Part shown: positions 9,641 to 41,968 of the stretch, piece by piece | Numbering within the stretch: position 1 is the stretch's first letter | How the letters are laid out: the number at the start of each line of letters is the position of its first letter | Assembly (NCBI GenBank): GCA_002344825.1 | Contig: DDUN01000006.1 | Location: 9,816-73,815 of the forward strand | DNA: 64,000 nt | Source: Candidatus Multiplicimicrobium inquinatum | GTDB lineage: Bacteria > Omnitrophota > Omnitrophia > Omnitrophales > Aquincolibacteriaceae | Direction of reading: 5' to 3' | The notes under the pieces: generated by a model | The model's input: the letters and a program-made list of their open reading frames with translations, nothing else | Told to the model about the DNA's origin: nothing | Databases searched by the model: none | Position numbers and translations under genes: made by a program

Positions 9641-9710
9641 AAGAGCCGTCTACGGCGTCAAAATTTCATTCCTTTGTGCGGAGTCGTTTTCACTACACCT
9701 CCGCAGTCAT
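9641..9710 (+). repeat. intergenic repeat, family 2, degenerate copy
   Basis: Carries ...cctttgtgcggagtcgttttcactacacctccgcagtc..., homologous to the copies at 15692, 29826 and 41858. Confidence 0.5.
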
Positions 9711-9815
9711 TCAAATTTTCCTTTTATTCAGGCTTTTTTGAGAAAAATGGTTTGAGATTTTTCGGATTTGAAGTGAGCCGTGACAACATCAGAATTTGAA
9801 TGAGGGAAAACATTG

Positions 9816-9905
9816 GGAGCGGCGAGTGGCTGACCCGCAGCGAACCCGAGCGTTTAGCAAGAGAGTGAGCGAAGGGTGGCGAGTCCAGATAGGTCCATTT
9901 CCTTC
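9816..9905 (+). repeat. intergenic repeat, family 3, copy A (possible small RNA)
   Basis: About 75% identical over ~90 nt to 24136..24235 (ggcgagtggc...gaagcgaaNccgagcgNttagcNagagagNgaNcgNaagg...ggtcc...tttcc). Confidence 0.5.
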
Positions 9906-10186
9906 TGCTATCCCAACCACGCTTCACTTGGGGTTCATAGATTTTTACAACGGTGATGCAGTTAATCCAGCGCATTCTTTTTTAATGCATTTAAAATGTT
10001 TTCCATTTTTGTCGTAAAAACATGTTTGCTTCAAAAATGTAAGACATTCACGTAATTAAAAAATTTAAGTTCAGTTTTTATTGTCGCAGCCGAAACTAAA
10101 TATGGGATGCCGAATTGTTTTTTGGGGCGGGATTTCCTTTTTTTATGAAGAATCGTTTTAGTTCTTTGATTTTTCTAAAAAAAATA

Positions 10187-10214
10187 TTGATTTCATTTTC
10201 GAGATTGGTATGAT
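10187..10214 (+). promoter_or_regulatory. sigma-70-like promoter for the porin gene (TTGATT-N16-TATGAT)
   Basis: The element sits in the AT-rich region about 70 nt upstream of the porin start. Confidence 0.4.
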
Positions 10215-10283
10215 GCTTGCTGTTTGGGTACCGTTCGGGTAACGGCAATTTCCATGTAATTAATTTAACCAAGGAGAGATCGG

Positions 10284-11555
10284 ATGAAGCTGACAATTAA
10301 GAAAGCTTTGGGGATTCTCGCTCTTGTTGCATTTATGCCTTCGATGGCTTTTGCACAAAGCGCGGATGTCAGTGCATTAGAAAACCAAGTAAAAGAGCTT
10401 ACCAAGAAGGTAGCTGCTCTTGAAGGCGCAAAGACGTCACAGTCTTCCTACGGTGCTGGCTATGTGATGCCGACCGAAGGTGATCAGGGTGGTCTTTTAC
10501 ATGCCGCACAGGATATTGACTTTGGCGGATATGTTGCGACAAGCTACACCAGCCACTTTGGTCAGAACAGCACTTGGCAGGGGCGTATTTTTGATGCCAA
10601 CGAAGGTTTCGCTGTCAATCAGGCGAACTTCTACTTCAAGAAAGATGCTCCAGCTGAAGGCGGAGCAGGTTTCAAAATCGATATTATTGCCGGCCGTGAC
10701 GCTCGCGTAATTGATTTCGCCGCGACCGCTGACAACGATGATTTTGCTTTCAACGAAGCTTATGTTGAAGTGAACACACCGTCTCTCCTCGGCGAAAGCG
10801 ATATTCTTCCGAGCATGATCAACTGGAAAGTTGGACGTATGTCCACTTTGGCTGGACGTGAAGTCATCAATCCCGCGGCAAACTGGAACATTTCCCGTTC
10901 TGTTGGCTTTGGTTTTGGTCTTCCGTTTACTCACACCGGTTTGCGCACTAACACAAAATGGTTCGGCGAAAAGCTGAATGTTTATGCTGGTGTGAACAAC
11001 GGTTGGGATGTTGACGTTGAGACTAACGATTTCCGTACTTTGGAATTCGGTCTTGGTGTTAATCTTCTTGAAAATCTGAGCTACTTCACCGCTATTTATT
11101 TCGGCCCTGAAACAGCTGGCATTTCTGATGATAAAACCTTTTTGTGGACACATGTCCTTGATTTGGCTGTCACAGATGCGCTTAAGTTAGGTGCTGAACT
11201 TAATTGGGGTCGCACAAACGATTTCGTAACCGCTGCGGGCAATTCTGAAAACGCTGAATTTGCTACGTTCGGTTTCTATGGTCGCTATCAGCTTGCTCCG
11301 AAATGGGCTGCTGCTCAGCGCTTCGAAATCTTCCGTGATATTGACGGATCACGCGGCGCAGGTTTTGGTTCAGGTTCAGGTTCTGGCACAGACACGATGT
11401 TTGGCTGGACTTCAACTCTTGAGTACACACCGTATGACAATTTGATCACCCGTCTCGAATACCGCTTGGATAAAGTGAATAGCGGAAACGGCACGATCTT
11501 TGGAACGGATAGTACACGTGGAACTCTTGCTGCTCAGATGATTTATACAATCTAA
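10284..11555 (+). CDS. putative outer-membrane beta-barrel porin with an N-terminal coiled-coil segment
   Basis: A signal peptide (AFMPSMAFA-QS) is followed by a heptad-like segment (ALENQVKELTKKVAALEG). The rest has alternating aromatic/Gly-rich beta-strand character and ends ...AQMIYTI. A strong intrinsic terminator follows. Confidence 0.55.
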   Translation: MKLTIKKALGILALVAFMPSMAFAQSADVSALENQVKELTKKVAALEGAKTSQSSYGAGYVMPTEGDQGGLLHAAQDIDFGGYVATSYTSHFGQNSTWQGRIFDANEGFAVNQANFYFKKDAPAEGGAGFKIDIIAGRDARVIDFAATADNDDFAFNEAYVEVNTPSLLGESDILPSMINWKVGRMSTLAGREVINPAANWNISRSVGFGFGLPFTHTGLRTNTKWFGEKLNVYAGVNNGWDVDVETNDFRTLEFGLGVNLLENLSYFTAIYFGPETAGISDDKTFLWTHVLDLAVTDALKLGAELNWGRTNDFVTAAGNSENAEFATFGFYGRYQLAPKWAAAQRFEIFRDIDGSRGAGFGSGSGSGTDTMFGWTSTLEYTPYDNLITRLEYRLDKVNSGNGTIFGTDSTRGTLAAQMIYTI

Positions 11556-11568
11556 GCAACTTGTTTTA

Positions 11569-11605
11569 AAAGCCCCGGATTTGAAAAAATCCGGGGCTTT
11601 TTTTG
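11569..11605 (+). terminator. Rho-independent terminator after the porin gene
   Basis: The stem AAAGCCCCGGATT / AATCCGGGGCTTT is followed by TTTTTTTG. Confidence 0.85.
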
Positions 11606-11688
11606 TCTTTTCCGTTTTGTGCCTTTGTTTTAAAGGCGGGATAATTTTTTCGATTGACCTTTTGCCTCTGTATTCATACACTAAAAAC

Positions 11689-12042
11689 ATGAAATCATTT
11701 TTAAAATCCATTCAGATTGTTTTTTTATTTGGAATTGGTGTTTTGTTTCTTTCAGGTTGCTTGCGTTCACCCGCGCGTCACCAGTTCGGTGATTACTCCA
11801 ATGCGGAGAAGTACTATGCTGAGGGAAAGTATGAAAAAGCGATCGAGTCTTATCAAAACTATATGGATAAGAATGAAGAGGGAAACCTTTCAATTATCGC
11901 TAAGTACTATACCGCGAAAAGTTATGTTGCTTTGCAGAAGAATGATCAAGCGAAGAAGTATTACCAGGAAATTATTAATCAGTATCCCGATCTGATTTGG
12001 GCTGAGCTTTCTAAGGAGCAGTTAAAAAACTTAGCCGGCTAG
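11689..12042 (+). CDS. TPR-repeat lipoprotein
   Basis: Has a lipobox (LFLSGC) followed by TPR-like helices (AEKYYAEGKYEKAIESYQNYM...AKKYYQEIINQYPD). The start is placed at ATG 11689 rather than the longer ORF. Confidence 0.55.
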   Translation: MKSFLKSIQIVFLFGIGVLFLSGCLRSPARHQFGDYSNAEKYYAEGKYEKAIESYQNYMDKNEEGNLSIIAKYYTAKSYVALQKNDQAKKYYQEIINQYPDLIWAELSKEQLKNLAG

Positions 12043-12087
12043 TCTTACTGAGTTTTTCCTCTCGACGCATTTTTTAAAGTTTTAGAT

Positions 12088-12479
12088 AGAATCAAGGGTG
12101 CTTTTTCGGATGACCGCTCCTTAAAGGAGAGGAAAGTCCGTGCTTCCAAGGACAGCCGTAGTGGGTAACGCCCATCTTCCGTAATATGCTGAAGGTGCAA
12201 ATCATCGGCGGAAAGCGGAACGGATCAGAGCCACAGAGACGAGTCTTTTTGAGGGTAAACCCTCGAAAAGGGTGAAACGCGGCAATCTCTACGGGGAAGA
12301 AAGGCTAAACGGAAAAGACCAGCAATGGGAAGCGGTCCGCTTCAACCCCGAGGTAACGGAGGGTTTCTTTTCGGGTAAGCCGCTAGCGAAGCTTCGTAAG
12401 GAGCTTTCAAGATAGATGGTCATCGTTTGCTGTAAAGCAAATACAGAACACGGCTTATAGAAAAGGTGCTCTTGATTCT
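12088..12479 (+). ncRNA. rnpB: RNase P RNA (bacterial type A-like)
   Basis: Contains the conserved P4 strands GAGGAAAGTCCGtGCT and ACAGAAcaCGGCTTA, plus GGGTAACGCC and AGGGTGAAACG. The P1 helix is AGAATCAAG (12088-12096) pairing with CTTGATTCT (12471-12479). The overlapping minus-strand ORF 12289..12576 is spurious. Confidence 0.85.
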
Positions 12480-12498
12480 GTTCTCTCGCCTCTTTTTT

Positions 12499-12523
12499 GC
12501 TCTGCGCCTGTGGCGCAACTGCG
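12499..12523 (+). repeat. short hairpin motif, family 1 copy (GCTCTGCGCC-tgt-GGCGCAACTGCG) just 3' of rnpB
   Basis: Same flanks as the other family-1 copies. Confidence 0.6.
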
Positions 12524-12594
12524 TAAGCACCCTTGATTTTGCTCAAGCGCATTTTTTTGTCTATGCCACACCCCAAAAATGAGTATGTAGTAGC

Positions 12595-12623
12595 TTGACA
12601 AAAGAGCGAAGTGAAAGTATCAT
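12595..12623 (+). promoter_or_regulatory. strong sigma-70 consensus-like promoter (TTGACA-N17-TATCAT), likely the pyr operon promoter
   Basis: The -35 TTGACA lies at 12595-12600 and the -10 TATCAT at 12618-12623, with a 17-nt spacer. Confidence 0.6.
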
Positions 12624-12733
12624 CCCTCAGCTCGAAGCGGTGATTTTAGCCGCCAAGACCTTTTAAGACGGTGCTGTGACGCTGTCAAAGGAACATCAGT
12701 GAATTTACTAGCATACAATTTGCGTTTGTTGTC

Positions 12734-12768
12734 GTCCCTGCTTAATTTCCTAGGCAGGGTCTTTTTTT
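12734..12768 (+). terminator. intrinsic terminator / attenuator hairpin in the pyr leader
   Basis: GTCCCTGC...GCAGGGTC is followed by TTTTTTTG. It lies between the promoter and pyrR, as expected for PyrR-mediated attenuation. Confidence 0.6.
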
Positions 12769-12772
12769 GTCT

Positions 12773-12796
12773 CGGCTCTGGCCTTCGGCCAACCGC
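12773..12796 (+). repeat. short hairpin motif, family 1 copy (GGCTCTGGCC-ttc-GGCCAACCGC) in the pyr leader
   Basis: Conserved flanks with a different, self-complementary stem. Confidence 0.55.
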
Positions 12797-12805
12797 ATTT
12801 TGTCT

Positions 12806-12830
12806 TGGCTCTGAGCTTCGCTCAACCGCC
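12806..12830 (+). repeat. short hairpin motif, family 1 copy (GGCTCTGAGC-ttc-GCTCAACCGCC) in the pyr leader
   Basis: A tandem second copy, again with a compensatory stem. Confidence 0.55.
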
Positions 12831-12876
12831 CGGCTGTCTTTTGCCTCATCCTCTTTTTTTCAAAACAGGGTGGCAC

Positions 12877-13425
12877 ATGCCTAAGACTTTTCTTGATTCA
12901 ACCGAAATTCAGCGCGCGGTAGTGCGTATTGCACATGAAATTTTAGAACGCAACCATGACGTGAATAATTTGGCGATCGTGGGCGTTCGTACCCGCGGGG
13001 TTTTTATTGCCGAGAGAATCCGCAATAAAATACAAGAAATCAAATCATTTCAACTTCCTTTCGGTATTTTAGATATCACGCTTTACCGCGATGACTTAAG
13101 TGAAGTCGGAGTTCATCCTCAGCTCAAAGAAACGGATATTCCTTTTGATTTGCATGATCGCACCATTGTTTTGGTGGATGATGTTTTATTTACGGGACGT
13201 ACGATTCGGGCTGCGCTCAATGCTATTTCAGATTTTGGCCGGCCGCGCGCGGTTCAACTCGCCGTGCTTGTCGACCGTGGGCACCGCGAGCTTCCGATTA
13301 AAGCAGATTTTGTCGGAAAAAATATTCCGACTTCGCGACAAGAAAAAGTTTTGATTCATTTGCAGGAAACAGACGGGAAGGATGAAGCGTTAATTTTGCC
13401 GGTAGCCGGCGAGGTGATTTCATGA
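12877..13425 (+). CDS. pyrR: bifunctional pyrimidine operon regulator / uracil phosphoribosyltransferase PyrR
   Basis: Has the PRTase motif (IVLVDDVLFTGRTIRAA) and a PyrR-like N-terminus. It is the first gene of the pyr cluster. The ATG at 12877 follows a purine-rich RBS. Confidence 0.9.
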   Translation: MPKTFLDSTEIQRAVVRIAHEILERNHDVNNLAIVGVRTRGVFIAERIRNKIQEIKSFQLPFGILDITLYRDDLSEVGVHPQLKETDIPFDLHDRTIVLVDDVLFTGRTIRAALNAISDFGRPRAVQLAVLVDRGHRELPIKADFVGKNIPTSRQEKVLIHLQETDGKDEALILPVAGEVIS

Positions 13426-14378
13426 ACCAATCCGCCTGGAAGCGCAAAGACCTGATCGGATTACGCGATCTTTCTAAAGAAGAAATTGAGTTGATTTTGG
13501 ATACGGCAGCATCTTTCAGCGAAGTTTCACAGCGGTCGGTAAAAAAAGTGCCCGCACTTCGCGGAAAAACAGTCGTGAATCTTTTTCTTGAGCCGAGTAC
13601 GCGTACCCGCATGTCATTTGAATTAGCCGAGAAACGTTTGAGCGCGGACACGCTTGGTATGACCGGTTCGGTATCGAGTATGACCAAGGGTGAGTCGTTG
13701 CGCGATACCGCTCAGAATATCGAAGCGCTGAAAGTGGATTTGATCGTGATGCGTCATCCTTCCTCGGGTGCCGCTTATCGGTTGTCGCAGTACACAAGCA
13801 AAGGTGTTGTGAACGCGGGCGACGGTATCAATGAGCATCCCACTCAGGCGCTAATCGACATTTTTACTATTCGTGAACTGAAAAAAAATGTCAAAGGGCT
13901 TAAGATTGTTTATCTTGGCGACATTTTGCATTCACGGGTCGCACGGTCGAATATTTGGGGATTAACGAAGCTTGGCGCGCAGGTGGTTGTTTGCGGTCCC
14001 AAAACCCTTATTCCCAAGGGCATTGAAGAGCTCGGCGTGAAAGTGGAACACAATCCCGCTAAAGCGGTACAAGATGCCGATGCGGTGACTTTGCTCCGTA
14101 TCCAGCTCGAACGGCAAAATGAAAGTTTATTTCCGAGTTTGCGCGAATACTCGGACACTTACGGAATGAATGAAAAACTTTTTATGCGAGCGAAGCCGGA
14201 TGCAATTTTGATGCATCCGGGACCGGTGAATCGCGGTGTTGAAATCGAAAACTCGCTCGCGGACAGCCCTCGCTCGGTGATTTTAAGACAGGTAACCAAC
14301 GGGATTGCCGTGCGTATGGCGGTTCTTTATCTCTTGAGCGGAGCGGCTTCGATTGACGGGGGAGGTTCGCATGAGTAA
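13422..14378 (+). CDS. pyrB: aspartate carbamoyltransferase catalytic subunit
   Basis: Carries the STRTR, HPTQ and HPGP motifs. Its start overlaps the pyrR stop (ATGA). Confidence 0.9.
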   Translation: MNQSAWKRKDLIGLRDLSKEEIELILDTAASFSEVSQRSVKKVPALRGKTVVNLFLEPSTRTRMSFELAEKRLSADTLGMTGSVSSMTKGESLRDTAQNIEALKVDLIVMRHPSSGAAYRLSQYTSKGVVNAGDGINEHPTQALIDIFTIRELKKNVKGLKIVYLGDILHSRVARSNIWGLTKLGAQVVVCGPKTLIPKGIEELGVKVEHNPAKAVQDADAVTLLRIQLERQNESLFPSLREYSDTYGMNEKLFMRAKPDAILMHPGPVNRGVEIENSLADSPRSVILRQVTNGIAVRMAVLYLLSGAASIDGGGSHE

Positions 14379-15681
14379 CGGATTGCATCGCCGGCAGGCA
14401 AAAAATTTGGTGATCCGTAACGCGCATGTTGTGGATCCCTTTCACAAAATTAATGACGTGCTCGAGCTTTATATCAAGAACGGAAAAGTCCAGAAGTGGG
14501 GCAAGAAGGTGGATGCTCCCGCCGACGCCGATGTGTTTGACGCCAAAGGACTGTATCTTTTTCCGGGGTTCATTGATTTGCAGGTTCATTTCCGCGATCC
14601 CGGATTTGAAAACAAAGAAACGATTGAAAGCGGAGTTCAGGAAGCAATTGCGGGCGGATTCGCGGGGTGCGTGACTATGCCGAATACCAAGCCCGCGTGC
14701 GACAATGAACAGGTTGTGAAATATCAAATCGACCGCGGCGCGTTGAGCGACTTTAATATTTTTCCCGCCGGTGCTTTGACACAAGGAGTCGGAGGTCAAA
14801 AAATAGCTGAAATTTCTGAAATGAAAATTGCGGGCGCGGTGGCGGTGACGGATGGATCCAGCTGGCTGCAAGACTCCGGTGTTGCGCGCAGGGCCTATGA
14901 GTATGCGACCACTTATGATTTGGTGGTGATGTCGCAGGCCGAAGACAATCGATTGAGCGCGGCCGGAGTGATGAATGAAAGTGTGGTCTCAACCCGCTTG
15001 GGCTTACGCGGCCGTCCCGGTGCCGCTGAAGACATTGCGATTGCAAGAGATTTGGAATTGGCGCGTTTAACAGGATGTCGTCTCCATCTGATGAGTGTTT
15101 CGACCAAACGGGCGGTGGAGTATATCCGCGAAGCAAAGCAGGAAGGCATCACCGTGACCGCGCAGGTGACACCGCATCATTTGATGATGACCGAAGATGA
15201 CTTTGTGACTTATGACACCAATTTTAAAATGAGCCCGCCCTTGCGCAGCGTTGAGGACCAAAAAGCAATTTTGGAAGGGTTGAAAGACGGGACGATTGAT
15301 GTGATTGGTTCGGATCACTCGCCGCACGCGGCGGAAGAAAAAGATATGGATGTAGAAGTGGCGCCGGACGGAGTTGTGGGGTTGACTTCTTACTTTGGCG
15401 CGGTGATGACGGCTTTATATCATGGGCAGAAAATTCCTCTGATGGAGATCGTTAGAAAAATGAGTCTTCGCCCAAGTGAAATTATCGGCAAGAATAAGTT
15501 TGGAAGATTAGGCGAGGGAGAGCTTGCCAACTTTGTTTTGGCGGATTTGAATCATGAATGGGTTTTTGAGAAAAAGCATATTTTTTCAAAATCAAAAAAC
15601 TCTTGTTTCCTGGGCAGAAAATTTAAAGGCAAGGTATTTCATAATTTTGTAAACGGCTATCACTACGACTTGACCAAGTAA
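14371..15681 (+). CDS. pyrC: dihydroorotase
   Basis: Shows the metal-binding DLQVHFRDPG pattern of the amidohydrolase fold. The RBS GGAGG precedes an ATG at 14371. Confidence 0.85.
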   Translation: MSNGLHRRQAKNLVIRNAHVVDPFHKINDVLELYIKNGKVQKWGKKVDAPADADVFDAKGLYLFPGFIDLQVHFRDPGFENKETIESGVQEAIAGGFAGCVTMPNTKPACDNEQVVKYQIDRGALSDFNIFPAGALTQGVGGQKIAEISEMKIAGAVAVTDGSSWLQDSGVARRAYEYATTYDLVVMSQAEDNRLSAAGVMNESVVSTRLGLRGRPGAAEDIAIARDLELARLTGCRLHLMSVSTKRAVEYIREAKQEGITVTAQVTPHHLMMTEDDFVTYDTNFKMSPPLRSVEDQKAILEGLKDGTIDVIGSDHSPHAAEEKDMDVEVAPDGVVGLTSYFGAVMTALYHGQKIPLMEIVRKMSLRPSEIIGKNKFGRLGEGELANFVLADLNHEWVFEKKHIFSKSKNSCFLGRKFKGKVFHNFVNGYHYDLTK

Positions 15682-15691
15682 TGAAAAAGTC

Positions 15692-15778
15692 CATTTGCTG
15701 CTTTACAAGCTGCGCTTCTTTGTGCGGCGTAAGTTTTTACTACGCCTCCGCAGGCGCTTGCTTGCGCATTGCAACTGG
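15692..15778 (+). repeat. intergenic repeat, family 2 copy, just after the pyrC stop
   Basis: Carries ccatttgctgctttacaagctgcgcttctttgtgcggcgtaag-tttttac-tacgcctccgcaggcgcttgcttgcgcattgcaactgg. Confidence 0.6.
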
Positions 15779-15823
15779 ATCTTTTTCCTTCACTTGTTCT
15801 TAAAACAATTTTAGGTATTTTTT

Positions 15824-16942
15824 ATGAAAGCATTTTTAGCATTAGAAGACGGATTGATTTTTGAGGGCGAAGGTTTTGGGGCAGAAACCGAAATCTTCGG
15901 CGAGGTAGTTTTTAATACTTCGTTGACCGGGTATCAGGAGATTTTGACGGACCCTTCTTATAAGGGACAGATTGTGGTTATGACTAACCCGCATATCGGT
16001 AATTATGGAATTAACTCCGAAGACGCGGAATCTCACCGCCCCTGGGCTGAAGGATTTGTAGTGCGAGAACTGAGCCCCGTGGTCAGCAATTATCGTTCGC
16101 AGGAATCTTTACATGATTATTTGAAGCGGAATAATATGCCCGGCATTCAGGGAATTGATACACGCAAATTAGTGAAACATTTGCGGACGCATGGTGCTAA
16201 GAAGGGTATTTTGACCACCAAGGAATCCGATCCAAAAAAATTGGTTCAAAAAGCCAAAGATTCTCCGAGTATTGTCGGCGTGGATTTGGTGCGGGAAGTG
16301 AGCTGCACCAAAGCCTATGACTTTAACGAAACGATGCCCGTTGGATTTGAGTGGGGCAAAAAAAATACGCAGAAGTATCAGGTTGTCGCGATTGATAGCG
16401 GAATTAAATACAATATCTTACGTTTGTTGAATCGGCATGGATTTAAAGTGAAGGTCGTTCCGGCGGATACCACTGCCGAAGAAATTTTAAAAATGAAACC
16501 GGACGGTGTTTTTCTTTCGAATGGACCCGGAGATCCGGCGGCGGTGACTTACTTGGTTTCGACCGTCAAAAAACTGATCGGCAAAGTACCGCTTTTCGGA
16601 ATTTGTCTGGGGCACCAGATGATTGGGTTGGCTTTGGGCGCGACGACTTCGAAATTGAAGTTCGGTCATCGCGGAGGCAATCATCCCGTTATGGACTTAA
16701 CGACCAAGAAAATTGAGATCACTTCACAAAACCATGGTTTTGTGGTGGATGTGGATACTTTGCCCAAGGGTGAAGTCGAAGTGACGCACATTAATTTGAA
16801 TGATAAAACCCTCGAAGGGTTGAGCCATAAAAAGCATCCTCTTTTTTCGGTTCAGTATCATCCTGAAAATTCGCCGGGTCCGCACGACAGTCATTATTTA
16901 TTCGAACGGTTTTATGATTTAGTGGCGGCGAACACAAAGTAA
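15824..16942 (+). CDS. carA: carbamoyl-phosphate synthase small (glutaminase) subunit
   Basis: Has the class-I GATase motifs (GICLGHQ, HGF..., YHPE). Confidence 0.9.
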
Positions 16943-16977
16943 GTTTTTATAAATACAAAAAATTATCGGAACCATTT

Positions 16978-19900
16978 ATGCCAAAAAGAACAGATCTTAA
17001 GAAAATTCTCATAATCGGCTCCGGGCCGATCATCATCGGACAAGCTTGTGAATTTGACTACTCGGGAGTTCAGGCGATCAAGTCACTGAAAGAAGAAGGC
17101 TATCAGGTTATTTTGATCAACTCCAACCCCGCAACAATCATGACCGATCCCGAAATGGCGGATGCGGTTTATATTGAGCCGCTGACGGTGGAGTTTCTTG
17201 AGAAGGTTATTGCGAAAGAGCGTCCCGATGCCGTGCTTCCGACCATGGGCGGACAAACCGGCCTTAATTTGGCGGTGGAAGCTTATGAAAAAGGCATTTT
17301 CAAGAAATACAATGTCGAGATGATCGGCGCGAAGTATGAAGCGATCAAAAAAGCCGAAGACCGCGAGCTCTTTAAAAAGGCGATGCAGAAAATCGGTTTG
17401 GATTTACCCGTCAGCCAATTCGCGACGTCCGTTGATGAGGCGGTGAAGGTTGCGAATAAAATCGGCTATCCTGTGATTGTGCGCGCCAGCTTTACTCTGG
17501 GTGGTTCCGGCAGCGGTATCTGCGCCAATGAAGAAGAATTGCGCAAGGTCGCGAAAACCGGAATTGATTACAGCCCCATTCATCAAGTGCTTGTTGAAGA
17601 ATCTATTTTTGGCTGGAAAGAATATGAGCTCGAAGTCATGCGCGACACCAAAGATAATTTTGTCGTGATTTGTTCGATTGAAAATTTCGATCCGATGGGC
17701 GTGCACACGGGTGATTCGATTACCGTCGCACCGTCGCAAACTTTGACCGACAAAGAGTATCAGCGTATGCGTGATGCCGCTAAAGCGGTGATGACTGAAA
17801 TTGGCGTAGAAACCGGCGGTTCGAACGTGCAGTTCGCGGTGAATCCCAAAGACGGCCGCATGACCATTATTGAAATGAATCCGCGGGTTTCGCGTTCCTC
17901 GGCTTTGGCATCCAAAGCCACGGGATTTCCGATCGCGAAGTTTTCAGCTAAGCTTGCTGTTGGTTTGACTCTGGATGAAATTCCCAATGATATTACTAAG
18001 TACACACCGGCTTCGTTTGAACCTTCCATTGATTATTGCGTTGTAAAAATTCCGCGTTTTGCTTTTGAAAAGTTCGAAGGCGTGGATAGCCGGCTTTCGT
18101 CTCAGATGAAATCGGTTGGGGAAGTGATGTCGATCGGCAGTACTTTTAAGGAAGCTTTCCAAAAAGGACTGCGCTCGCTTGAAACCAAACGGTTTGGTTT
18201 AGGTGCGGACGGAAAAGATAAAGTTTTCGATTTAGCGCTAAATACCCGCGAAGCCTATCTCGAGTTTTGTCAGACTGCCCCTAAGGACGCGGCGCTCAAG
18301 AAAAAACTTTTGGATGAAATCAAGGTGCCTCGTGATGGTCGTCCCTTTAATTTGAAATATGCTTTTCTTGCCGGCGCGACCGTGGAAGAAATTTTTGAAG
18401 CTTCATTTATTGATCCTTGGTTTTTGCACCAGCTGAAACAAATCATTGACTTAGAAAAAGAGTTGATCGACGCCAAGGAATCTCAGCGTAAAACTCTTTT
18501 ACGCAAAGCAAAGAAGTATGGGTTTTCTGACCGGCAGCTGGCATTTTTGTGGGGCAAAAAAGAAAATGAAGTCCGTGTGATGCGTAAAGCGGAAAAGATA
18601 ATTCCCGTTTATAAGCTGGTGGATACCTGTGCCGCGGAATTTCAGGCTTTTACGCCTTACTTTTATTCGACCTATCAGGATGAAGATGAAGTGGTTGTGA
18701 CACCGAAGAAAAAAGTCATGATCTTAGGCGGCGGCCCGAATCGAATTGGGCAGGGGATTGAATTTGACTATTGTTGTGTGCACGCGGTCATGGCGCTTAA
18801 AGAAAAAGGTTATGAAACCATCATGGTCAACTCGAATCCCGAAACTGTTAGTACGGATTATGACACGGCGGATAAGCTCTACTTCGAACCTTTGACGCTC
18901 GAAGATGTGCTGAATATTTATGAAAAAGAACAGCCGATCGGCGTGATTCCGCAATTGGGCGGACAAACTCCGCTTAATCTGGCGAGAGGCTTGGCGGATA
19001 ATGGCGTGCGTATTTTAGGAACTTCCGTGGAGTCGATTGAACGCGCCGAAGACCGCGATCTGTTTAAGCAGCTGCTTCAGAAAATCGGATTGCGCCAGCC
19101 CGCTAATGGTATTGCTACCAGCTTCGCCGAAGCTTGTGTTGTGGCCAAAGAAATCGGATACCCCGTGGTGGTTCGTCCGTCGTTTGTTTTGGGCGGCCGC
19201 GCGATGGAAATCGCTTACGATGAAGCTCAGCTTAAAAAATTTATGAAGCAGGCCGTGGAAGCCAGTGATAACCATCCTATTTTGATCGACAAGTTTTTGG
19301 AAAGCGCGACGGAATCGGATGTGGACTTAATCTCTGATGGAAAAATAAGTGTCGTGGGTGCCGTGATGGAGCATATCGAAGAAGCAGGGATTCATTCGGG
19401 AGATTCTGCTTCGGTCATTCCGCCGTATTCACTGTCACCCATGGTGGTTCAGGAAATTACACAGAAAACCAAAGAGCTCGCGAAGGAATTGAATGTAATC
19501 GGCTTGATGAATGTGCAGTATGCCGTGGTTCGTGATCAGGTTTACTGCCTGGAAGTAAATCCGCGAGCTTCGCGCTCCATGCCTTTTGTAAGTAAGACGA
19601 TCGGTGTTCCGCTTGCGAAGCTTGCCGCTAAAATTATGGTGGGCGATACGCTTGAAAAATTAGGGTATACAGCTGAAATTCATCCGCCTTATGTGACCGT
19701 GAAAGAATCTGTTTTTCCTTTTGTGAAGTTTCCGGGCGTAGATATTATTCTTTCGCCTGAAATGAAATCGACCGGAGAGGTCATGGGAATTGATCGTGAC
19801 TTCGCGCGCGCTTTTTATAAGTCGCAGGAAGCGTCGATGGCACACATTCCGGAAAAAGGAAATGTGTTTATCAGTGTGAAAGACACCGATAAGGTTGCGA

Positions 19901-20277
19901 TTATTGATATTGCGCAGGGTTTTGAAAAATTGGGTTATCGTATTTTTTCGACTCGCGGAACGGCTGCGGTTTTACGCGAGCATGGCGTTTCAGTTGAAGA
20001 ACTAAAGAAGTTAAGCGATGGAAGTCCCAACGCGGCGGAATTGATCCGTGAACAGAAAATCGATTTGATTATTAATACGCCCAACGGTAAAGGCCCGATG
20101 TTGGATGAAGCCAAAATTCGTTCTCTGGCTGTTTCATTTAAAGTGCCCTGTATCACAACGATTCGCATGGCCAAGGCCGCTGTCTTTGGATTGCAGGCCG
20201 TGCGCGGTGCGCAGCTCGAAGTGAACCCGATCAGCTACTACCATGAGGAATGCCGCCGCATGACTGCGCGCGTTTGA
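16978..20277 (+). CDS. carB: carbamoyl-phosphate synthase large subunit
   Basis: 1099 aa with duplicated ATP-grasp halves and a C-terminal MGS-like domain. Confidence 0.95.
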
Positions 20278-20279
20278 TC

Positions 20280-21059
20280 ATGTCTGTGAAAGCATACGAC
20301 GAGGCGGTAATCATCCTCGAAAACAAAAAGATTAACGAAAAGTATCTCAAGCTTTCTTTCCGTTCCAAAAAATTGGTCCAAGGTGTTAAGCCCGGTCATT
20401 TTCTCATGATGCAAATCGGAGATAAGAACGACCCCTTTTTACGCCGCCCTTTCAGTTACTACCGTGCCTCGTCCGACCGCATTGAAGTTTTATACGAAAT
20501 TTTAGGCTATGGCACCTCGCTTTTATCGAAAAAGAAAAAAGGAGAAACAGTGCAGGTGATGGGGCCTTTGGGAAATCCTTTTTCTGTCAAAATAGCCCGT
20601 AAAAAACGTGTGCTTGTTGCGGGCGGTGTGGGAGTTCCTCCGCTTGTGTTTTTCGCCGAAAAAAATCGCAGTGATTATCTTTTAATCGGAACCAAGTCCA
20701 AACAGGAAGTGATGCCGAAAAAGGAACTCGCCAAAGTTAAAGCCAAGGTTCTTTTTTCAACCGATGACGGATCTTACGGAACAAAAGGGCGCGTGACGCT
20801 TTTACTTGAAGATGTGATTGAAAAGGAAGGCGCTGAAAATATTTTTATCCAAACTTGCGGACCCATGCCCATGATGAATGCCGTGATGGCTTTGGCAAAA
20901 AAATACGAAATTCCCGGCGAAGCCTCGCTTGATAAAACCATGGGCTGCGGCGTTGGTGTTTGTCTTGGGTGTATGGTTAAAACGCATGAAGGTTGGGTGC
21001 CGTCCTGTACGGAAGGCCCTGTGTTTAGCTTTGACGATATTGTAGAGGCAGGCGTATGA
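20280..21059 (+). CDS. pyrK: dihydroorotate dehydrogenase electron-transfer subunit
   Basis: Has FAD/NAD-binding motifs (RPFS) and a C-terminal Cys cluster (CGVGVCLGC...C). The ATG at 20280 lies 2 nt after the carB stop. Confidence 0.85.
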   Translation: MSVKAYDEAVIILENKKINEKYLKLSFRSKKLVQGVKPGHFLMMQIGDKNDPFLRRPFSYYRASSDRIEVLYEILGYGTSLLSKKKKGETVQVMGPLGNPFSVKIARKKRVLVAGGVGVPPLVFFAEKNRSDYLLIGTKSKQEVMPKKELAKVKAKVLFSTDDGSYGTKGRVTLLLEDVIEKEGAENIFIQTCGPMPMMNAVMALAKKYEIPGEASLDKTMGCGVGVCLGCMVKTHEGWVPSCTEGPVFSFDDIVEAGV

Positions 21060-22012
21060 AAAAAACGGCTGCAAAAAAAGTTGATCTTACGACAAAGATT
21101 AAAAACCTGACTTTTAAAAACCCCGTGACGGTCGCTTCGGGAACCTTCGGCACCACGACCGAAATGGAATCATTTATCGATTATGATAAGCTTGGTGCGG
21201 TGATCGCGAAAACGGTCACTTTGTATGCTCGGCCAGGCAATCCGATGCCCCGCATCTGCGAAACAGCCTCCGGAATGATTAACGCCATCGGTTTGCAGAA
21301 TAAGGGACTTGATGAGTTTCTCGAAAACAAAATGCCCAAAATACGCAAACAGAAAACTCCGTGGGTGATCAGTATTGCGGCGGAAACGACGGAAGAGTTT
21401 TCCGTGATGGCGAAAAAGTTGGATGCGGTAAAAAAAGATTTTGCGATGCTGGAAGTGAATCTTTCTTGCCCGAATGTGGAAAAAGGCGGCGCCAGCTTTG
21501 TGAAAAAGCAGGAAACGATTATCGATATTATCAAAGCTATTCGTGATCAGACGGATATGGTCATGATGGCAAAGCTCTCGCCTGAACTCGGCGATGTCAT
21601 TGAGATTGCTGGCAATGCCCTGCGGCATGGCGCAGACGGACTCAGTTTGATCAATACACTTCGTGGGATGGTTGTAGATGTTTATAAACGCCGTTCGCGC
21701 ATTGCGCGCGACAGCGGTGGATTAAGCGGTCCCGCGATTAAGCCGGTGGCTTTGCGCTATGTTTATGACTGCAAGAAAGCGTTTAACTGTCCGATCATTG
21801 CGTCGGGTGGAATTCGTGACTGGAAAGACGCCGTTGAGTTTTTGATCGTTGGGGCCGATTTGTTGGCTGTCGGAACTTCTAATTTTGTGACACCAAACGC
21901 GACCATGCAAATTATTACGGGCATTGAGAGTTTTTGCCGCGAGCAAGGGATTCAGAAGTTGGATGATTTAAGAGGGACGTTTCAGTCCGCGCAATCTTTG
22001 GGGTGTAAATAG
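21056..22012 (+). CDS. pyrD: dihydroorotate dehydrogenase (class 1B) catalytic subunit
   Basis: A TIM-barrel DHOD (NPVTVASGTFG..., IIASGGI). It overlaps the pyrK stop. Confidence 0.9.
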   Translation: MKKTAAKKVDLTTKIKNLTFKNPVTVASGTFGTTTEMESFIDYDKLGAVIAKTVTLYARPGNPMPRICETASGMINAIGLQNKGLDEFLENKMPKIRKQKTPWVISIAAETTEEFSVMAKKLDAVKKDFAMLEVNLSCPNVEKGGASFVKKQETIIDIIKAIRDQTDMVMMAKLSPELGDVIEIAGNALRHGADGLSLINTLRGMVVDVYKRRSRIARDSGGLSGPAIKPVALRYVYDCKKAFNCPIIASGGIRDWKDAVEFLIVGADLLAVGTSNFVTPNATMQIITGIESFCREQGIQKLDDLRGTFQSAQSLGCK

Positions 22013-22013
22013 T

Positions 22014-22727
22014 ATGAGGGCGAGTGAAAAAATTATCTTGGCTTTAGACTTTTCTGATTTAAAGGATGTCAAAAAAACTTTAAAGCAGTTGGACGGCCAA
22101 GCTGTTTATTACAAAGTTGGTCTTGAACTGTTTATTAGCCACGGCTGGAAAGTCGTGGAGCTGGTCAAGAAAACCGGTGCGCGTGTTTTTCTGGATTTAA
22201 AACTGCATGATATTCCGAATACCGTGGCGAAGTCGGTCGCAACAGCATGCCGGCATGAAATTGATATTTTGAATGTGCACGCTTTGGGCGGTTTTGAAAT
22301 GATGCAAAGAGCCGGGGAGGCGTTTCAAGAAAATGCGGTGAATAAAAAGGCTGAACTGATTGCCGTCACCATTTTGACCAGTCATGACCAAAAGGTTTTG
22401 GATAAGGAATTACGAATTGGACAACCGATTCCATCTCAGGTTGTGCATTTAGCGAAATTAGCGGAAAAAGCCGGTTTGTCCGGTGTCGTGGCTTCACCGC
22501 TTGAAGTAAAACTGATTCGCAAAGCGGTTGAGAGAAAGTTTCGCATTGTGACACCGGGAGTTCGGCCATTAACCGCGGATTTAAATGATCAAAAACGGGT
22601 TTATACACCTGCACAGGCGATCCGCGAGGGAGCGGATTATCTCGTGATTGGCCGTCCGATTACTCAAGCAAAAGACCCAGCCAAGGCCTTTGAGATGATT
22701 GTTCAAGAAATTCAGGGAGTTCTTTAG
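22014..22727 (+). CDS. pyrF: orotidine-5'-phosphate decarboxylase
   Basis: Carries ILALDF...FLDLKLHDIPNTV...VIGRPI. Confidence 0.9.
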   Translation: MRASEKIILALDFSDLKDVKKTLKQLDGQAVYYKVGLELFISHGWKVVELVKKTGARVFLDLKLHDIPNTVAKSVATACRHEIDILNVHALGGFEMMQRAGEAFQENAVNKKAELIAVTILTSHDQKVLDKELRIGQPIPSQVVHLAKLAEKAGLSGVVASPLEVKLIRKAVERKFRIVTPGVRPLTADLNDQKRVYTPAQAIREGADYLVIGRPITQAKDPAKAFEMIVQEIQGVL

Positions 22728-22838
22728 TTCTAGTCCAAGTTTGCGTTTGATAGTTCCCGACTTCTTTTCTGGGGCTTATTTTTTCTTTGCCCTTTCTTTA
22801 TTTCCTCCTATAATACCGCCTTCGTCGAACCATTCCGT

Positions 22839-22909
22839 TGGGGGATGGTGTAATGGTAGCACAAAAGCCTCTGGAGCTTTTTGTCTAGGTTCGAATCCTA
22901 GTCCCCCAG
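22839..22909 (+). tRNA. tRNA-Gln (anticodon CTG)
   Basis: A manual fold works. The acceptor TGGGGGA pairs with TCCCCCA, the anticodon loop is CTCTGGA, and the T arm is CTAGG-TTCGAAT-CCTAG. The variable loop is short (4 nt). Confidence 0.75.
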
Positions 22910-23224
22910 TACTTGGCTTCTGAAAGAAGCTTTGAGCTGGGAGAGTTTTAAGCGAGCCGGTAACGGCAAGCGTACAAAGCCCTCAATTGAGTAGTAAGGC
23001 GGAGACAGCTTGGAAACGGGTTTAAATCTGTTAAAAAGCTGTATGAGAATCTTGCTTCGCAAGTATCCAGGTGGGTAGGCGCGAAGCAGAGAGTTCATCG
23101 GGTCTGGTATGGTTTCTCTTTCGAACCTTCCAATCGAATCGTTCTCTCGCAAAATGCAAGCCGTTGTACGGAGGCTTTACCGCCGACAAACCGCGGCTTT
23201 AACCAATGAGGTAAGATAAGTTCT

Positions 23225-23602: not shown

Positions 23603-23615
23603 GCTGTTTTGTTTT

Positions 23616-23640
23616 GCCTCTGCGCATAGCGCAACCGGCG
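23616..23640 (+). repeat. short hairpin motif, family 1 copy (GCCTCTGCGC-ata-GCGCAACCGGCG) 14 nt after the RRM-protein stop
   Basis: Near-identical to the copies at 9452 and 40543. Confidence 0.7.
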
Positions 23641-23710
23641 AAGCAGCTCAACTTTGCTTTTACATCGCTCAATAGAAAAATTTTTTGTTGATTGACGTAT
23701 AAGAGTGATA

Positions 23711-29806: not shown

Positions 29807-29825
29807 TCTAAAACGACTGAAAAGG

Positions 29826-29915
29826 TTCATCTGCTGCGTTATGCGCTGCACTTCCTTGTGCGGCGTATTGCCCAGATACGCCTCCTCGGGCGTTTGCGCA
29901 AGCCTTGCAGCTGAA
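29826..29915 (+). repeat. intergenic repeat, family 2 copy, just after the acyl-CoA dehydrogenase stop
   Basis: Carries ttcatctgctgcgttatgcgctgcacttccttgtgcggcgtattg-cccaga-tacgcctcctcgggcgtttgcgcaagccttgcag. Confidence 0.6.
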
Positions 29916-29989
29916 ACCTTTTGAGTCATTTTATATAATAAAAACCCTGCTTGGTTCTTAGCTCTCATTAAGTTATAATTCCCGTCCTT

Positions 29990-34658: not shown

Positions 34659-35621
34659 ATGTCAAAAGCGGACGCCGTTAAAGAAAAAGAGAAAGAACAG
34701 AAGCTCAAAGCGCTTAGGCGTGAATTAGACGAGCAAATCACCGAACAGCTTGAAGCAGCTGCCGTTTCTGAGCAGCTGGATACGGAGCGTCTGAATAGTG
34801 TTGATACCCAGCAATTATCCGAAGCGGATCTTGAAGACCCAACGCGCGCCAAGCAGGTAATTGAAGCCCTTATTTTTGCTTCATCGAAACCAATTACCCC
34901 TGCTGAAATCCGCAAAGTTGCAAAGTCGCTGACGCCCGCCGTGATTAAAGACTATGTTGCCGCGATTCAAGCCGAGTATGTTGCCACGAATCGTCCATTT
35001 GATTTGGTTGAAGTTGCCGGCGGTTACGAAATTGCGACCAAAAAAGAATTTGCTCCCTGGATTTTTAAAATTGAGCTTCAGAAAAAAGTAAAGCAAGCTT
35101 CTCATTCCGCGCTTGAGACTTTGGCGATTCTTGCTTATAAGCAGCCTTTGACGCGGGCCGAAATCGAAGAGCTCCGCGGTGTGGATACCAGCGGGGTGAT
35201 GTCGACTTTGATGGAAAAAGATTTTGTGAAGATTGTAGGCAAAAAAGAAGTTCCCGGGCGCCCATTTCTGTATGGCACGACGGATAAATTTTTAGAACAC
35301 TTCGGCTTAAAAGATTTGACCGATTTGCCGAACATTGACGAGATTCGTGATTTGGTTTCGAAATCCGTTAAAAAAGACGAGCTTCTTTCCACTGCCCGTG
35401 TTGTTTCTGCCTCTGAGCCTTCGGCTCAACCGGCGGAAGGAGATTTGTTGGTTTCCGAAGATCCGGTGAAGGCGATTGATCACGAAGCTGAAAAGCGTGA
35501 ACGTGAGAAAATGCTCGCTGAAATTACGGATGAAATTGAATCCGTCAGCACGAAGGTTGATTTTCAGACTGAAGCCCCATCCGCCGAAGCAGCGCCTCCG
35601 CAGGACGAAAAGGCGCAATAA
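34659..35621 (+). CDS. scpB: segregation and condensation protein B (with extended charged N- and C-termini)
   Basis: The ScpB winged-helix core is present (QVIEALIFASSKPITPAEI...GYEIATKKEF...LETLAILAYKQPLTRAEIEELRG). Confidence 0.85.
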   Translation: MSKADAVKEKEKEQKLKALRRELDEQITEQLEAAAVSEQLDTERLNSVDTQQLSEADLEDPTRAKQVIEALIFASSKPITPAEIRKVAKSLTPAVIKDYVAAIQAEYVATNRPFDLVEVAGGYEIATKKEFAPWIFKIELQKKVKQASHSALETLAILAYKQPLTRAEIEELRGVDTSGVMSTLMEKDFVKIVGKKEVPGRPFLYGTTDKFLEHFGLKDLTDLPNIDEIRDLVSKSVKKDELLSTARVVSASEPSAQPAEGDLLVSEDPVKAIDHEAEKREREKMLAEITDEIESVSTKVDFQTEAPSAEAAPPQDEKAQ

Positions 35622-40518: not shown

Positions 40519-40542
40519 CTTTTGCTCTGAGCTGTTTTGTGA

Positions 40543-40566
40543 GCCTCTGCGCAAGGCGCAACTGGC
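40543..40566 (+). repeat. short hairpin motif, family 1 copy (GCCTCTGCGC-aag-GCGCAACTGGC) 24 nt after the rpsA stop
   Basis: Near-identical to the copies at 9452 and 23616. Confidence 0.7.
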
Positions 40567-40594
40567 AAACAGCCCAACCGCGAATGATTACACT

Positions 40595-41842
40595 ATGAAC
40601 TCTTCGAGCGGACGCCGAGTCGTCGTAACAGGACTCGGCGTCCTTTCTTCTATCGGGACAGGGAAAGAAGCCTTTTGGGACGGATTAGTTAACGCTCATA
40701 ACGGTATTTCTCTCATCTCTGCGTTTGATCCTGCTGACTTTACGACTCGTTTTGCCGGTGAAATTAAAACTTTTGATCCTTCTGCCTATATTCATGTGAA
40801 GCAAATGAAACGCATGGATCGAACCTCGCAGTTTGCCGTGGCGGCATCTAAAATGGCGGTTCAGGACTCCGGCATTGATTTTCAAAAGCTCGGGCCCGAA
40901 CGTGTGGGCGTTGTGATCGGCACCGCAATGGCGGGGCACGGCTACATTCTCGATCAGCACACGACTTTGATGAACAAGGGGCCGATGCGCATCAATCCGT
41001 TTACCGCATTAGCGGGCTTTCCCGACGCTTGCGCGGGTAACGTTTCGATTGAGCTTGGCTTAACTGGGCCCAGCTTTTCAATTTCAACTGCATGTTCCTC
41101 CGCATCGGATGCAATGGGCTATGCCTTCGAATCGATTCGCTCCGGAAAACTTGATGCGCTTTTAATGGGCGGGGCTGAAGCTTCAATTTTTCCCGGCATT
41201 CTCGCGGCATTTTGTGTCGCGCGCGCGATGTCTACCCGCAATGAATCGCCGGAAACTGCTTCGCGTCCTTTCAGCATGGATCGTGACGGATTTGTACTCG
41301 GTGAAGGTGCCGGAATGTTTGTGCTTGAAGAGTATGAGCACGCGAAAGCCCGCGGCGCGCATATTTATGCCGAAGTTTTAGGCGCAGGCATGACTTGTGA
41401 TGCTTACCATATGACCGCGCCCGACCCGGAAGGAAAGCAGGCTGCGCGTGCGATGCGCATGGCCCTGGACACGGCCCGCACTGAGCTGGATGAAATTGAC
41501 TACATTAACGCGCATGGTACTTCTACTCCGCTGAATGACAAAACCGAAACTTTGATTATCAAAAAAGTTTTCGGTGAGCAGGCTTATAAAATTCCGGTCA
41601 GCTCCACGAAGTCGATGATTGGTCATTTGATCGGCGCGGCCGGCGCGGTAGAGACAATCGCGGCTATCTTGGCGATGGATAAACAGGTTATTCCGCCGAC
41701 ACGCAACTACTCTTCAGTTGATCCTGATTGCGATCTTGATTATGTTCCGCACACTGCGAGACCTGCAAAAATCCGCAAGGTGCTTAAGAACTCATTCGGG
41801 TTTGGCGGGAAGAACTCGATCCTTGTTCTCGGCAAAGTTTGA
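40595..41842 (+). CDS. fabF: 3-oxoacyl-ACP synthase II
   Basis: Has a KAS active-site Cys (ISTACSS) and the His-His motifs (NAHGTST, IGHLIGAAG). Confidence 0.9.
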   Translation: MNSSSGRRVVVTGLGVLSSIGTGKEAFWDGLVNAHNGISLISAFDPADFTTRFAGEIKTFDPSAYIHVKQMKRMDRTSQFAVAASKMAVQDSGIDFQKLGPERVGVVIGTAMAGHGYILDQHTTLMNKGPMRINPFTALAGFPDACAGNVSIELGLTGPSFSISTACSSASDAMGYAFESIRSGKLDALLMGGAEASIFPGILAAFCVARAMSTRNESPETASRPFSMDRDGFVLGEGAGMFVLEEYEHAKARGAHIYAEVLGAGMTCDAYHMTAPDPEGKQAARAMRMALDTARTELDEIDYINAHGTSTPLNDKTETLIIKKVFGEQAYKIPVSSTKSMIGHLIGAAGAVETIAAILAMDKQVIPPTRNYSSVDPDCDLDYVPHTARPAKIRKVLKNSFGFGGKNSILVLGKV

Positions 41843-41857
41843 AAATCTGCTGAAAAA

Positions 41858-41968
41858 GCCTCATCTGCTTCGTTCTGCGCCGCCGCGATTTCCTTGGCAA
41901 ATCGCCAAACAATTTACTGCTTGTGCGGCGTATTGTTTCATACGCCTCCGCGGTCGTTTGCGCGCGTC
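41858..41968 (+). repeat. intergenic repeat, family 2 copy (with a ~30 nt insertion), just after the fabF stop
   Basis: Carries tcatctgcttcgttctgcgc...cttgtgcggcgtattg-tttca-tacgcctccgcggtcgtttgcgcgc. Confidence 0.6.

Follow-up and report, generated by a model that had tools for sequence, protein, structure and literature searches.

A palindromic intergenic repeat of a Candidatus Omnitrophota genome, probably a non-autonomous foldback element and resembling predicted short RNA elements of Geobacter

The window analysed here, a 64,000-nt stretch of a Candidatus Omnitrophota metagenome-assembled genome (MAG), carries four plus-strand copies of an intergenic repeat built around a conserved GGCGTA...TACGCC hairpin, three of them intact (copies 1 to 3) and one decayed (copy 0). 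We consider it probable, at roughly 0.62, that these sequences are a non-autonomous palindromic (foldback) mobile element, similar to miniature inverted-repeat transposable elements (MITEs) and to REPINs, that has settled in short spacers downstream of genes. The first-pass annotation of the window had proposed a MITE-like mobile repeat, a 3' untranslated region (UTR) element or a small RNA (sRNA). The first of these is the best supported, on the presence/absence and orientation polymorphism of the copies and on a sister subfamily with terminal inverted repeats and target-site duplication.

Both strands of the window (128 kb) were scanned, and we write the element, as the first-pass annotation did, on the strand that carries TTGTGC-GGCGTA-loop-TACGCC-TCC-GC. 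The exact core TGTGCGGCGTA-N8-9-TACGCCTCC was found three times on the plus strand, against no match in 100 dinucleotide-preserving shuffles. A covariance model built solely from copies in other genomes (R1; 61-copy set, alignment A3) recovered just the four sites that had been picked out by reading, the first of them as degenerate, with the next match at E 0.22 (Table 1). R1 aligns copies 1 and 2 across all 122 model positions and copy 0 over its full length; its match in copy 3 is limited to the core because of an insertion in that copy. The three loops (agtttttac, ttgcccaga and ttgtttca) and the internal insertion of about 30 nt with its own hairpin in the copy behind fabF were as first described, but the repeat size of about 90 to 130 nt had been set too short. 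Each copy is as a whole an imperfect palindrome of 107-156 nt, and not just a central hairpin, with the layout GAAAAAG-CATCTGCTGCGTT...core...TTGCGC..GCAnCTG..CTTTTTGA. Three of the window copies have the exact central palindrome GRCGTA...TACGCC, with TTGTGCG on its 5' side and TCCGCG on its 3' side, and in copy 0 this palindrome is decayed. Copies 1 to 3 begin 0-12 nt past the upstream stop codons, closer than the estimated 10-15 nt, and copy 0 does follow tRNA-Met, 60 nt 3' of it.

The secondary structure was drawn by hand on 61 homogeneous copies (alignment A3). From base to tip, a U-run/A-run helix and a second helix lead to an internal loop whose conserved sequences are GGCGUC (5' strand) and UCCUU(G) (3' strand), above which follow AAUC/GAUU and an 8-bp hypervariable helix. 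The apical part consists of a 5' bulge UUGU, 2 bp of GC/GC, a 3' bulge UCC, 6 bp of GGCGUA/UACGCC and a free loop. The stems covary strongly. In the 61 copies 86.9% of the cells are paired, compared with 76.8% after shuffling (0 of 500 shuffles as high); double changes occur at 20 pairs (196 cells), and sliding the 3' partners by 1-3 columns leaves 30-45% paired. For 54 copies of other subtypes, in an alignment that was fitted to R1 and hence leans toward the structure, 84.8% of the cells are paired against 65.0% in shuffles (again 0 of 500 as high), with double changes at 31 of 36 pairs (338 cells) and far lower values in the slid controls (36-49%). A double compensatory change, GGTGTA/TACACC, is seen inside the core itself in a copy between pyrC and carA of a related stretch, L120. 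The hairpin is thus maintained by compensatory change, and what defines the family is an asymmetric apical hairpin, itself conserved, on a long stem that keeps pairing, not sequence.

RNA folds by minimum free energy (MFE) gave -44.2 kcal/mol for copy 1 (z -5.6) and -55.0 kcal/mol for copy 2 (z -7.4), and folds of the window copies with DNA parameters gave z values of -4.7 to -5.8. RNAalifold on a mixed MAFFT alignment saw the invariant 7-bp tip alone, because no structure-based alignment had been applied to the arms of the different subtypes; palindrome ends taken from RNAfold over-extended the stems and were discarded. Loop length ranges over 5-10 nt and takes every residue mod 3, and 128 copies have 82 distinct loops between them. 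Given this variation in loop length and frame, the element is structural and non-coding, as the absence of a common frame had already led the first-pass annotation to say; the coding hypothesis was rejected on the same loop-length variation, with no frame kept. Spurious open reading frames (ORFs) arise through copies, for example at window positions 29571-29924.

Imperfect palindromes of 60-140 nt directly 3' of ORFs, which keep stem structure more than sequence and whose bulges make the folded single strand asymmetric and strand-specific, are also what would be expected of integron attC sites, or of other site-specific recombination hairpins marking gene cassettes. The ends of the present element, however, read TGAAAAAG... 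and ...CTTTTTGA, with no R''/R' core sites (RYYYAAC...GTTRRRY), and its conserved part is apical, not basal as are the R boxes of attC. The neighbours are housekeeping genes in conserved synteny (pyrC-carA-carB, S1-fabF-lpxA) rather than cassettes, and neither a cassette array nor, among the ORFs scanned beside the copies, an integrase was found. The attC candidate was rejected on these end sequences and this gene context, and we give it next to no chance.

In favour of a mobile element, close relatives differ from one another by the gain, loss, replacement or flipping of copies. Along window positions 10082-15672 L120 shows 96.7% identity, and the family copy in its pyrC-carA spacer lies on the opposite strand, has a similarity of about 70% by eye and starts 23 nt past the stop codon. 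A further copy stands between carA and carB of L120, a spacer that in the window is plain and 35 nt long. The fabF-lpxA spacer, in turn, is filled in the window by copy 3 and lacks it in L134 and L135 (FabF 93% identical), where a different palindromic module is present. In L122, at about 76% DNA identity, unrelated hairpins stand at both sites. The spacers of this lineage hold several palindrome families that turn over.

An insertion of the element into the loop of a pre-existing terminator, an idea prompted by basal stems that are copy-specific and complementary, was considered but found no support: the empty carA-carB site of the window has no hairpin matching the GTTTGC/GCAAAC ends of the L120 copy, and therefore these ends travel with the element. 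Over its length the comparison of L120 (1-15597) with the window (10082-25467) is a mosaic of successive blocks of 96.7%, 92.5%, 87.5%, 97.4% and 89.9% identity. The first two breaks lie at repeat-bearing spacers, which suggests recombination breakpoints at or near the elements.

The strand that folds best is a property of the element. Stem mismatches on the written strand are mostly A.C rather than G.U (139 against 43 overall, 24 against 4 in the hypervariable helix), so that the wobble pairs fall on the complementary strand. This strand is the better-folding one in 112 of 123 copies, with a margin of 5-12 kcal/mol according to subtype. Among the 58 copies with gene context the complementary strand is the better one in 55, by 8-16 kcal/mol. 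Their orientation to the neighbouring genes is mixed, with 23 sense and 14 antisense copies, 15 in convergent spacers and 6 in divergent ones, and the complementary strand folds better in 22, 13, 14 and 6 of these, respectively. The folding asymmetry belongs to the element and not to the host transcript, and because it is independent of host gene direction the hairpin serves the element rather than the mRNA. Taken together with the conserved, asymmetric bulges and with an orientation that is free relative to genes, this asymmetry leads us to infer that the element's own single-stranded form is recognised by a trans-acting enzyme, in a manner that may be likened to REP/RAYT, the ends of IS200/IS605 and attC. 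The conserved bulged hairpin would then be the recognition site of a mobilising enzyme acting on one folded single strand, presumably the complement of the written one.

A better-folding strand that is the same whatever the host genes would also fit a transcript of the element's own, made from the complementary strand, and a conserved core with covarying stems across phyla is a signature of functional RNA. An independently transcribed trans-acting sRNA, or a protein-sequestering RNA whose bulged hairpin is the binding site of a conserved protein, is nevertheless improbable. No conserved promoter or terminator frames the element (a lone promoter-like match lies at 29911-29939) and no Rfam family matches it; moreover, copy number and positions differ between near-identical strains, and the target-site duplications of the sister subfamily show insertion of DNA. 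The sRNA option of the first-pass annotation is thus left without support.

That sister subfamily, which among Desulfuromonadia and Desulfobacterales is the most frequent subtype, forms a complete MITE with fixed ends. The left one lies 58 nt before the core, and on the right a GGAAACT ends 59 nt beyond the core. Further features are an additional terminal hairpin, 17-nt terminal inverted repeats (AGTTTCCATCCGGAAAC / GTTTCCGGATGGACACT) and, at either end, small GTTTCC-N4-5-GGAAAC palindromes. The 5-bp direct repeat varies in sequence (TAATT, TATCT, TAGTT, GAGTT and others) and is perfect in 11 of 22 copies, with a mean match of 4.3 out of 5, compared with a mean of 2.7 and at most 3 perfect repeats in 500 trials of permuted pairings. 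The window-type termini are the inverted repeats ..TGCTGAAAAAG / CTTTTTGAGCA... A DDE transposase presumably moves the Desulfuromonadia subfamily, while copies of the window type may use a HUH/RAYT-like or another enzyme that leaves no duplication.

Two observations on this subtype stand by themselves. At L070 6170-6560 two MITE-type copies lie in tandem, 182 nt apart, and share a TAGTT 5-bp repeat at their junction. Copies of the Desulfuromonadia type (e.g. L026 722-844, complementary strand) have a conserved right arm AAATCAAGGGATTG, absent from the window type, which fits what we take to be the IHF consensus, WATCAANNNNTTR.

Several points weigh against reading the window copies as a mobile element. 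A target-site duplication, present at 5 bp in the Desulfuromonadia subtype, was not seen by eye at any of six window-type copies, including the polymorphic one of L120, and because none is visible the carA-carB difference could be a deletion in the lineage of the window rather than an insertion in L120. No transposase or RAYT gene was found next to any copy in 8-kb stretches (782 ORFs from 119 loci, clustered), where the recurrent neighbours were host families only, namely sigma-54 activators, ABC ATPases, nifH and nifD; the mobilising enzyme is therefore hypothetical. The strand asymmetry is small in the window copies, and in the model-fitted alignment the mismatches are roughly balanced (A.C 69, G.U 58). 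Furthermore, the copies of a MITE are not independent observations, and double changes in a quasi-palindrome can come from arm-to-arm template switching without selection. The invariance of the core is in part due to the collection of copies by an exact-core pattern, and the phylum labels are titles of MAG records. Finally, a host function would also account for the recurrence of copies after nifH and nifD in three genera and for their place immediately behind stop codons.

Such a function is what the strongest competing explanation assumes: a cis-acting RNA of the host, a 3' UTR or intercistronic hairpin selected for exonuclease protection, differential operon expression or partial or bidirectional termination, which spread only secondarily. 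Besides the start of the window copies next to stop codons and the strong stem covariation, it can draw on copy 3, which lies between convergent genes with an A-tract/stem/T-tract on both sides and is symmetrical like the canonical bidirectional terminator at 11568-11601, on the members behind nifH and nifD and between dapB and dapL in Geobacter, and on the excess of convergent over divergent spacers. This excess equally fits tolerance downstream of genes together with avoidance of promoters, which REP elements and MITEs likewise avoid. On the other side, the element sits on the other strand in the L120 pyrC-carA spacer, orientation is mixed overall, and the asymmetric bulges and the better-folding strand track the element and not the mRNA; copies are missing in close relatives, and the gene contexts are mutually unrelated. 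Termination can hardly be the general function, because the Desulfuromonadia subtype has no U-run after its hairpin, copies 1 and 2, with their T-runs inside the stem, lie between co-directional genes, and a simple terminator scan calls none of the window copies. We therefore regard a selected host RNA as unlikely, though less so than the other alternatives. The term 3' UTR element in the first-pass annotation describes the location correctly, not the reason why the structure is conserved. If the element is mobile, whatever it does to the host, be it as a barrier against 3' exonucleases or through partial or bidirectional termination, is likely a by-product of a stable hairpin beside a stop codon and not the element's reason for existing: a hairpin of -45 to -55 kcal/mol at that place probably blocks 3' exonucleases and may attenuate transcription.

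Among known systems, REP elements and REPINs, which are reportedly mobilised by RAYT (TnpA_REP) transposases (Nunvar 2010; Bertels and Rainey 2011), share with the present family the many intergenic palindromes near gene 3' ends in both orientations, the lack of an internal transposase, an asymmetric bulged stem kept as a hairpin by compensatory change and, for the window type, no visible target duplication. What we take to be the REP sequence of E. coli (..ATGCGGCGT-GAA-CGCCTTATCCG..) resembles the core, a lead rather than a test. A REPIN, in contrast, consists of two inverted 20-25-mers, whereas the window family has a single conserved apical hairpin on a stem of about 50 bp. REPIN-RAYT systems are described as lineage-specific and vertically inherited, unlike a core common to several phyla, and one subfamily here has DDE-type terminal inverted repeats and a target-site duplication. 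GTAG, the type of conserved 5' tetranucleotide that marks REP palindromes, occurs only in the Geobacter loop variant (GGCGTAGCGCTGCTACGCC), and the Desulfuromonadia type does bear its small GTTTCC-N4-5-GGAAAC palindromes at the two ends.

Foldback MITEs such as Correia/NEMIS in Neisseria, ERIC/IRU in Enterobacteriaceae, RUP and Chunjie of Geobacter uraniireducens are likewise non-coding, near-perfect palindromes of 100-200 nt that fold as RNA, lie in transcribed spacers in either orientation and have filled and empty sites between strains; with the Desulfuromonadia subtype they share terminal inverted repeats and target-site duplication. A sequence relation to them was neither seen nor tested. 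The pattern of a classical MITE is reversed in the window family, whose termini differ between subfamilies and whose centre is conserved. Chunjie is a different element because of its 21-bp terminal inverted repeats, 9-bp direct repeats and A+T-rich sequence.

The family extends well beyond the window, so that the refuting condition named in the first-pass annotation, copies confined to the window, clearly does not hold. In a scan of one genome per species (596 Gb) with a 20-base pattern at 11 gap lengths, the exact core was found in at least 119 stretches of other genomes, where by our own arithmetic about 12 chance matches are expected, and nearly all of the matches listed share the flanks and the palindrome. 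The isolates among them, all Desulfuromonadia, are Pelotalea chapellei, Geotalea toluenoxydans, Oryzomonas japonica and Geobacter sp. OR-1; the listed MAGs belong by their record titles to Desulfobacterales, Syntrophobacteraceae, Bdellovibrionales, Acidobacteriota/Thermoanaerobaculia, Nitrospirae, Gemmatimonadota, Zixiibacteriota and Omnitrophota, and some of their copies are on contigs of 0.1-3 Mb. An identical hairpin core of 26-30 nt thus occurs, by the same titles, in at least six phyla. A blastn search of a plasmid collection with both subtypes gave no match. Among 2.9 million viral contigs the sole exact core match (L139 38-63, a 13.4-kb IMG/VR contig) lies at the contig edge and may be the host flank of a provirus; the element is therefore not phage-borne.

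Copies in nitrogenase operons, after nifH and/or nifD, were seen in three Desulfuromonadia genera (L017 325-447 and 1927-2051; L047 ~6476-6620; L040 6644-6764 and 7364-7487). The same nif spacer holds different subtypes, with a Geobacter-type copy in Pelotalea and a MITE-type copy in a Geobacter MAG.

Elements of this kind are already on record. Twenty-four predicted short RNA elements, Gmet_R1001-R1024, were listed in Geobacter metallireducens (Aklujkar et al. 2009, BMC Microbiol 9:109, PMC2700814, Additional file 4); one of them, Gmet_R1005 (= GSU0160.1 of G. sulfurreducens), separates dapAB from dapL, and that paper gives no structure, covariation analysis, mobility evidence or function for them (PMC2700814). 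By direct comparison with the published alignment, the window element belongs, as judged from sequence, to the same family. The Gmet_R10xx elements share with the window copies CTTGTGCG-GCGTA...TACGCC-TCCGCG, CATCTC/GCGT in the left arm and GCCTTGA in the right arm, and they are likewise intergenic, multicopy, about 112 nt long and present on both strands, with arms that pair into one long hairpin; R1, which derives from their close relatives, matches the window copies at E 3.5e-8. They differ in the loop, a fixed GCGCTGC palindrome in Geobacter as opposed to free loops of 8-9 nt in the window, in the GAAAAAG/CTTTTTGA basal arms, a feature of the window copies, and in the host, Desulfuromonadia against Omnitrophota. 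No later work on the family was found beyond the 2009 paper in searches for GSU0160.1, Gmet_R1005, the loop palindrome, RAYT/REPIN/Geobacter and Omnitrophica palindromic repeats, and searches with sequence strings returned adapter and primer noise only. Rfam gave no match either, with chance hits only, in gathering scans of the window and 16 related loci and in scans with three subtypes at E up to 10. The kind of element is thus known, and the window copies are added members in a phylum new to the family. What this analysis adds is the members in Omnitrophota, the occurrence of an identical core across several phyla, a secondary structure backed by covariation, the subtype with terminal inverted repeats and target duplication, the filled and empty sites and the element-intrinsic strand asymmetry.

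Palindromic intergenic repeats such as REP elements, REPINs and MITEs are normally specific to a genus or family. The present family contrasts with this in its identical core in several phyla, its covarying stems and its interchangeable termini. A rather speculative extension, which we hold to be doubtful, is that the TTGT / GC / TCC / GGCGTA hairpin might be a portable module for a single-strand-acting enzyme, HUH/RAYT-like or other, shared horizontally among sediment and groundwater bacteria of several phyla. If so, it would amount to a REPIN-like system that crosses phyla with chassis that can be exchanged: a DDE-type MITE for Desulfuromonadia, an A-tract/T-tract foldback for Omnitrophota, Bdellovibrionales and Geobacter. 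Were the core the recognition site of an enzyme, phylogenetic profiling of the core against protein families could reveal a new or newly host-ranging mobilisation system, and such a system would show in what way these elements pass between uncultured anaerobes. Neither Rfam nor annotation pipelines contain the family, whose copies mark breakpoints of recombination and assembly in MAGs; with a covariance model, the annotation of Desulfobacterota, Omnitrophota and others would become cleaner. In addition, the nifHDK and dapAB-dapL spacers of cultivable Geobacter are testable sites for large hairpins inside operons.

The window copies differ in their state and surroundings (Table 1). Copy 0 lies behind tRNA-Met (9502-9576) and a small hairpin of a different family and is followed by a porin gene; its core is mutated to GGAGTC...CTACACC, with TTGTGCGG, CCTCCGC and the internal-loop motifs GGCGTC / TTTCCTT retained. 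The genes next to the copies, the porin gene included, were confirmed by Pfam. Copy 1 stands between a pyrC-like (dihydroorotase-like) gene with its stop codon at 15679-15681 and carA, which starts at 15824. Copy 2, with TCCTC in place of TCCGC in its core, follows an acyl-CoA dehydrogenase gene ending at 29806 and precedes a sulfite/nitrite reductase gene starting at 29990. Copy 3 lies between fabF, which ends at 41842, and a converging lpxA-like gene (42041-42877, minus strand). Its sequence is identical in L136 and L138, from the same organism as the window, and the locus of the window recurs unchanged in the contigs L136-L138. The window FabF is 100% identical to a protein (cluster P0001) that NCBI assigns to Candidatus Omnitrophota. 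The hairpin of its insertion, TTGGC-AAATC-GCCAA at 41894-41908, is separate in the MFE fold. The promoter-like match mentioned above is a single consensus match, CTGAAA-17-TATAAT (10/12), that starts in the right arm of copy 2, about 50 nt 5' of the sulfite/nitrite reductase gene.

Table 1. Copies of the palindromic repeat in the window, with their matches to the covariance model R1
Feature	Position	Strand	R1 match (E)	Remarks
Copy 0	9636..9742	+	9636-9742 (0.035)	decayed; alignment A1; fold z -3.1
Copy 1	15681..15789	+	15681-15789 (3.5e-8)	intact; arms TGAAAAAGTCCAT.../...ATGGATCTTTTTC; core 15721-15749
Copy 2	29815..29927	+	29808-29934 (8e-7)	intact; arms GACTGAAAAGG.../...CCTTTTGAGTC; core 29857-29885
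Copy 3	41842..41997	+	41920-41952 (8e-4)	palindrome AAAATCTGCTGAAAAAG.../...CTTTTTGAGCAGATTTT; core 41922-41949; inverted repeat I13 (27 nt, 85%)
Insertion in copy 3 left arm	~41883-41913	+		~31 nt; gap block in alignments A1 and A2

Other palindromes occur in the same spacers. A second tip module, CTCAGACAGTCCTCGGCCTTTGGCCTGTGGAACTCG, lies at 23878-23972 of the window, just after tRNA-Leu, set in copy-specific A-tract/T-tract stems (AAAAAGCCTTACCCTTAAAAG ... TTTTAAGGATAAGGCTTTTTT), and the same module is found at L134 4260-4340 and L135 1800-1875, where it fills the fabF-lpxA spacer that lacks copy 3. Its architecture, a conserved tip on a variable base, is that of the family studied here, which hints that these genomes may quite generally use such tip modules to build or replace hairpins downstream of genes. 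Around the module, 23848-23874 and 24030-24056 form a perfect 27-nt inverted repeat (100% complementary). One arm consists of the last bases of tRNA-Leu(GAG) (23785-23868), its 3' end, and a few more; its inverted counterpart lies 155 nt downstream, across the module, and the pair may be a relic of integration or rearrangement at tRNA-Leu. In the carA-carB spacer of L122 there are two further repeats, GGGGACAGGCACCAAAGTGCCTGTCCCC at 6958-6990 and a longer one, TGTCATTCCCGCGAAGGCGAGAATCCAG...CTGGATCCCCGCCTTCGCGGGGATGACA, at 7016-7085. A short hairpin family, TTGCTCTG-nGsC-ykT-GsCn-CAAC, is present in the window at 9587-9609, 12497-12519, 35408-35430 and 58905-58927 (four matches, none expected). 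It is probably the repeat family that the first-pass annotation had listed first, and its members stand directly after tRNA-Met, with copy 0 just behind, and after the RNase P RNA (12098-12473).

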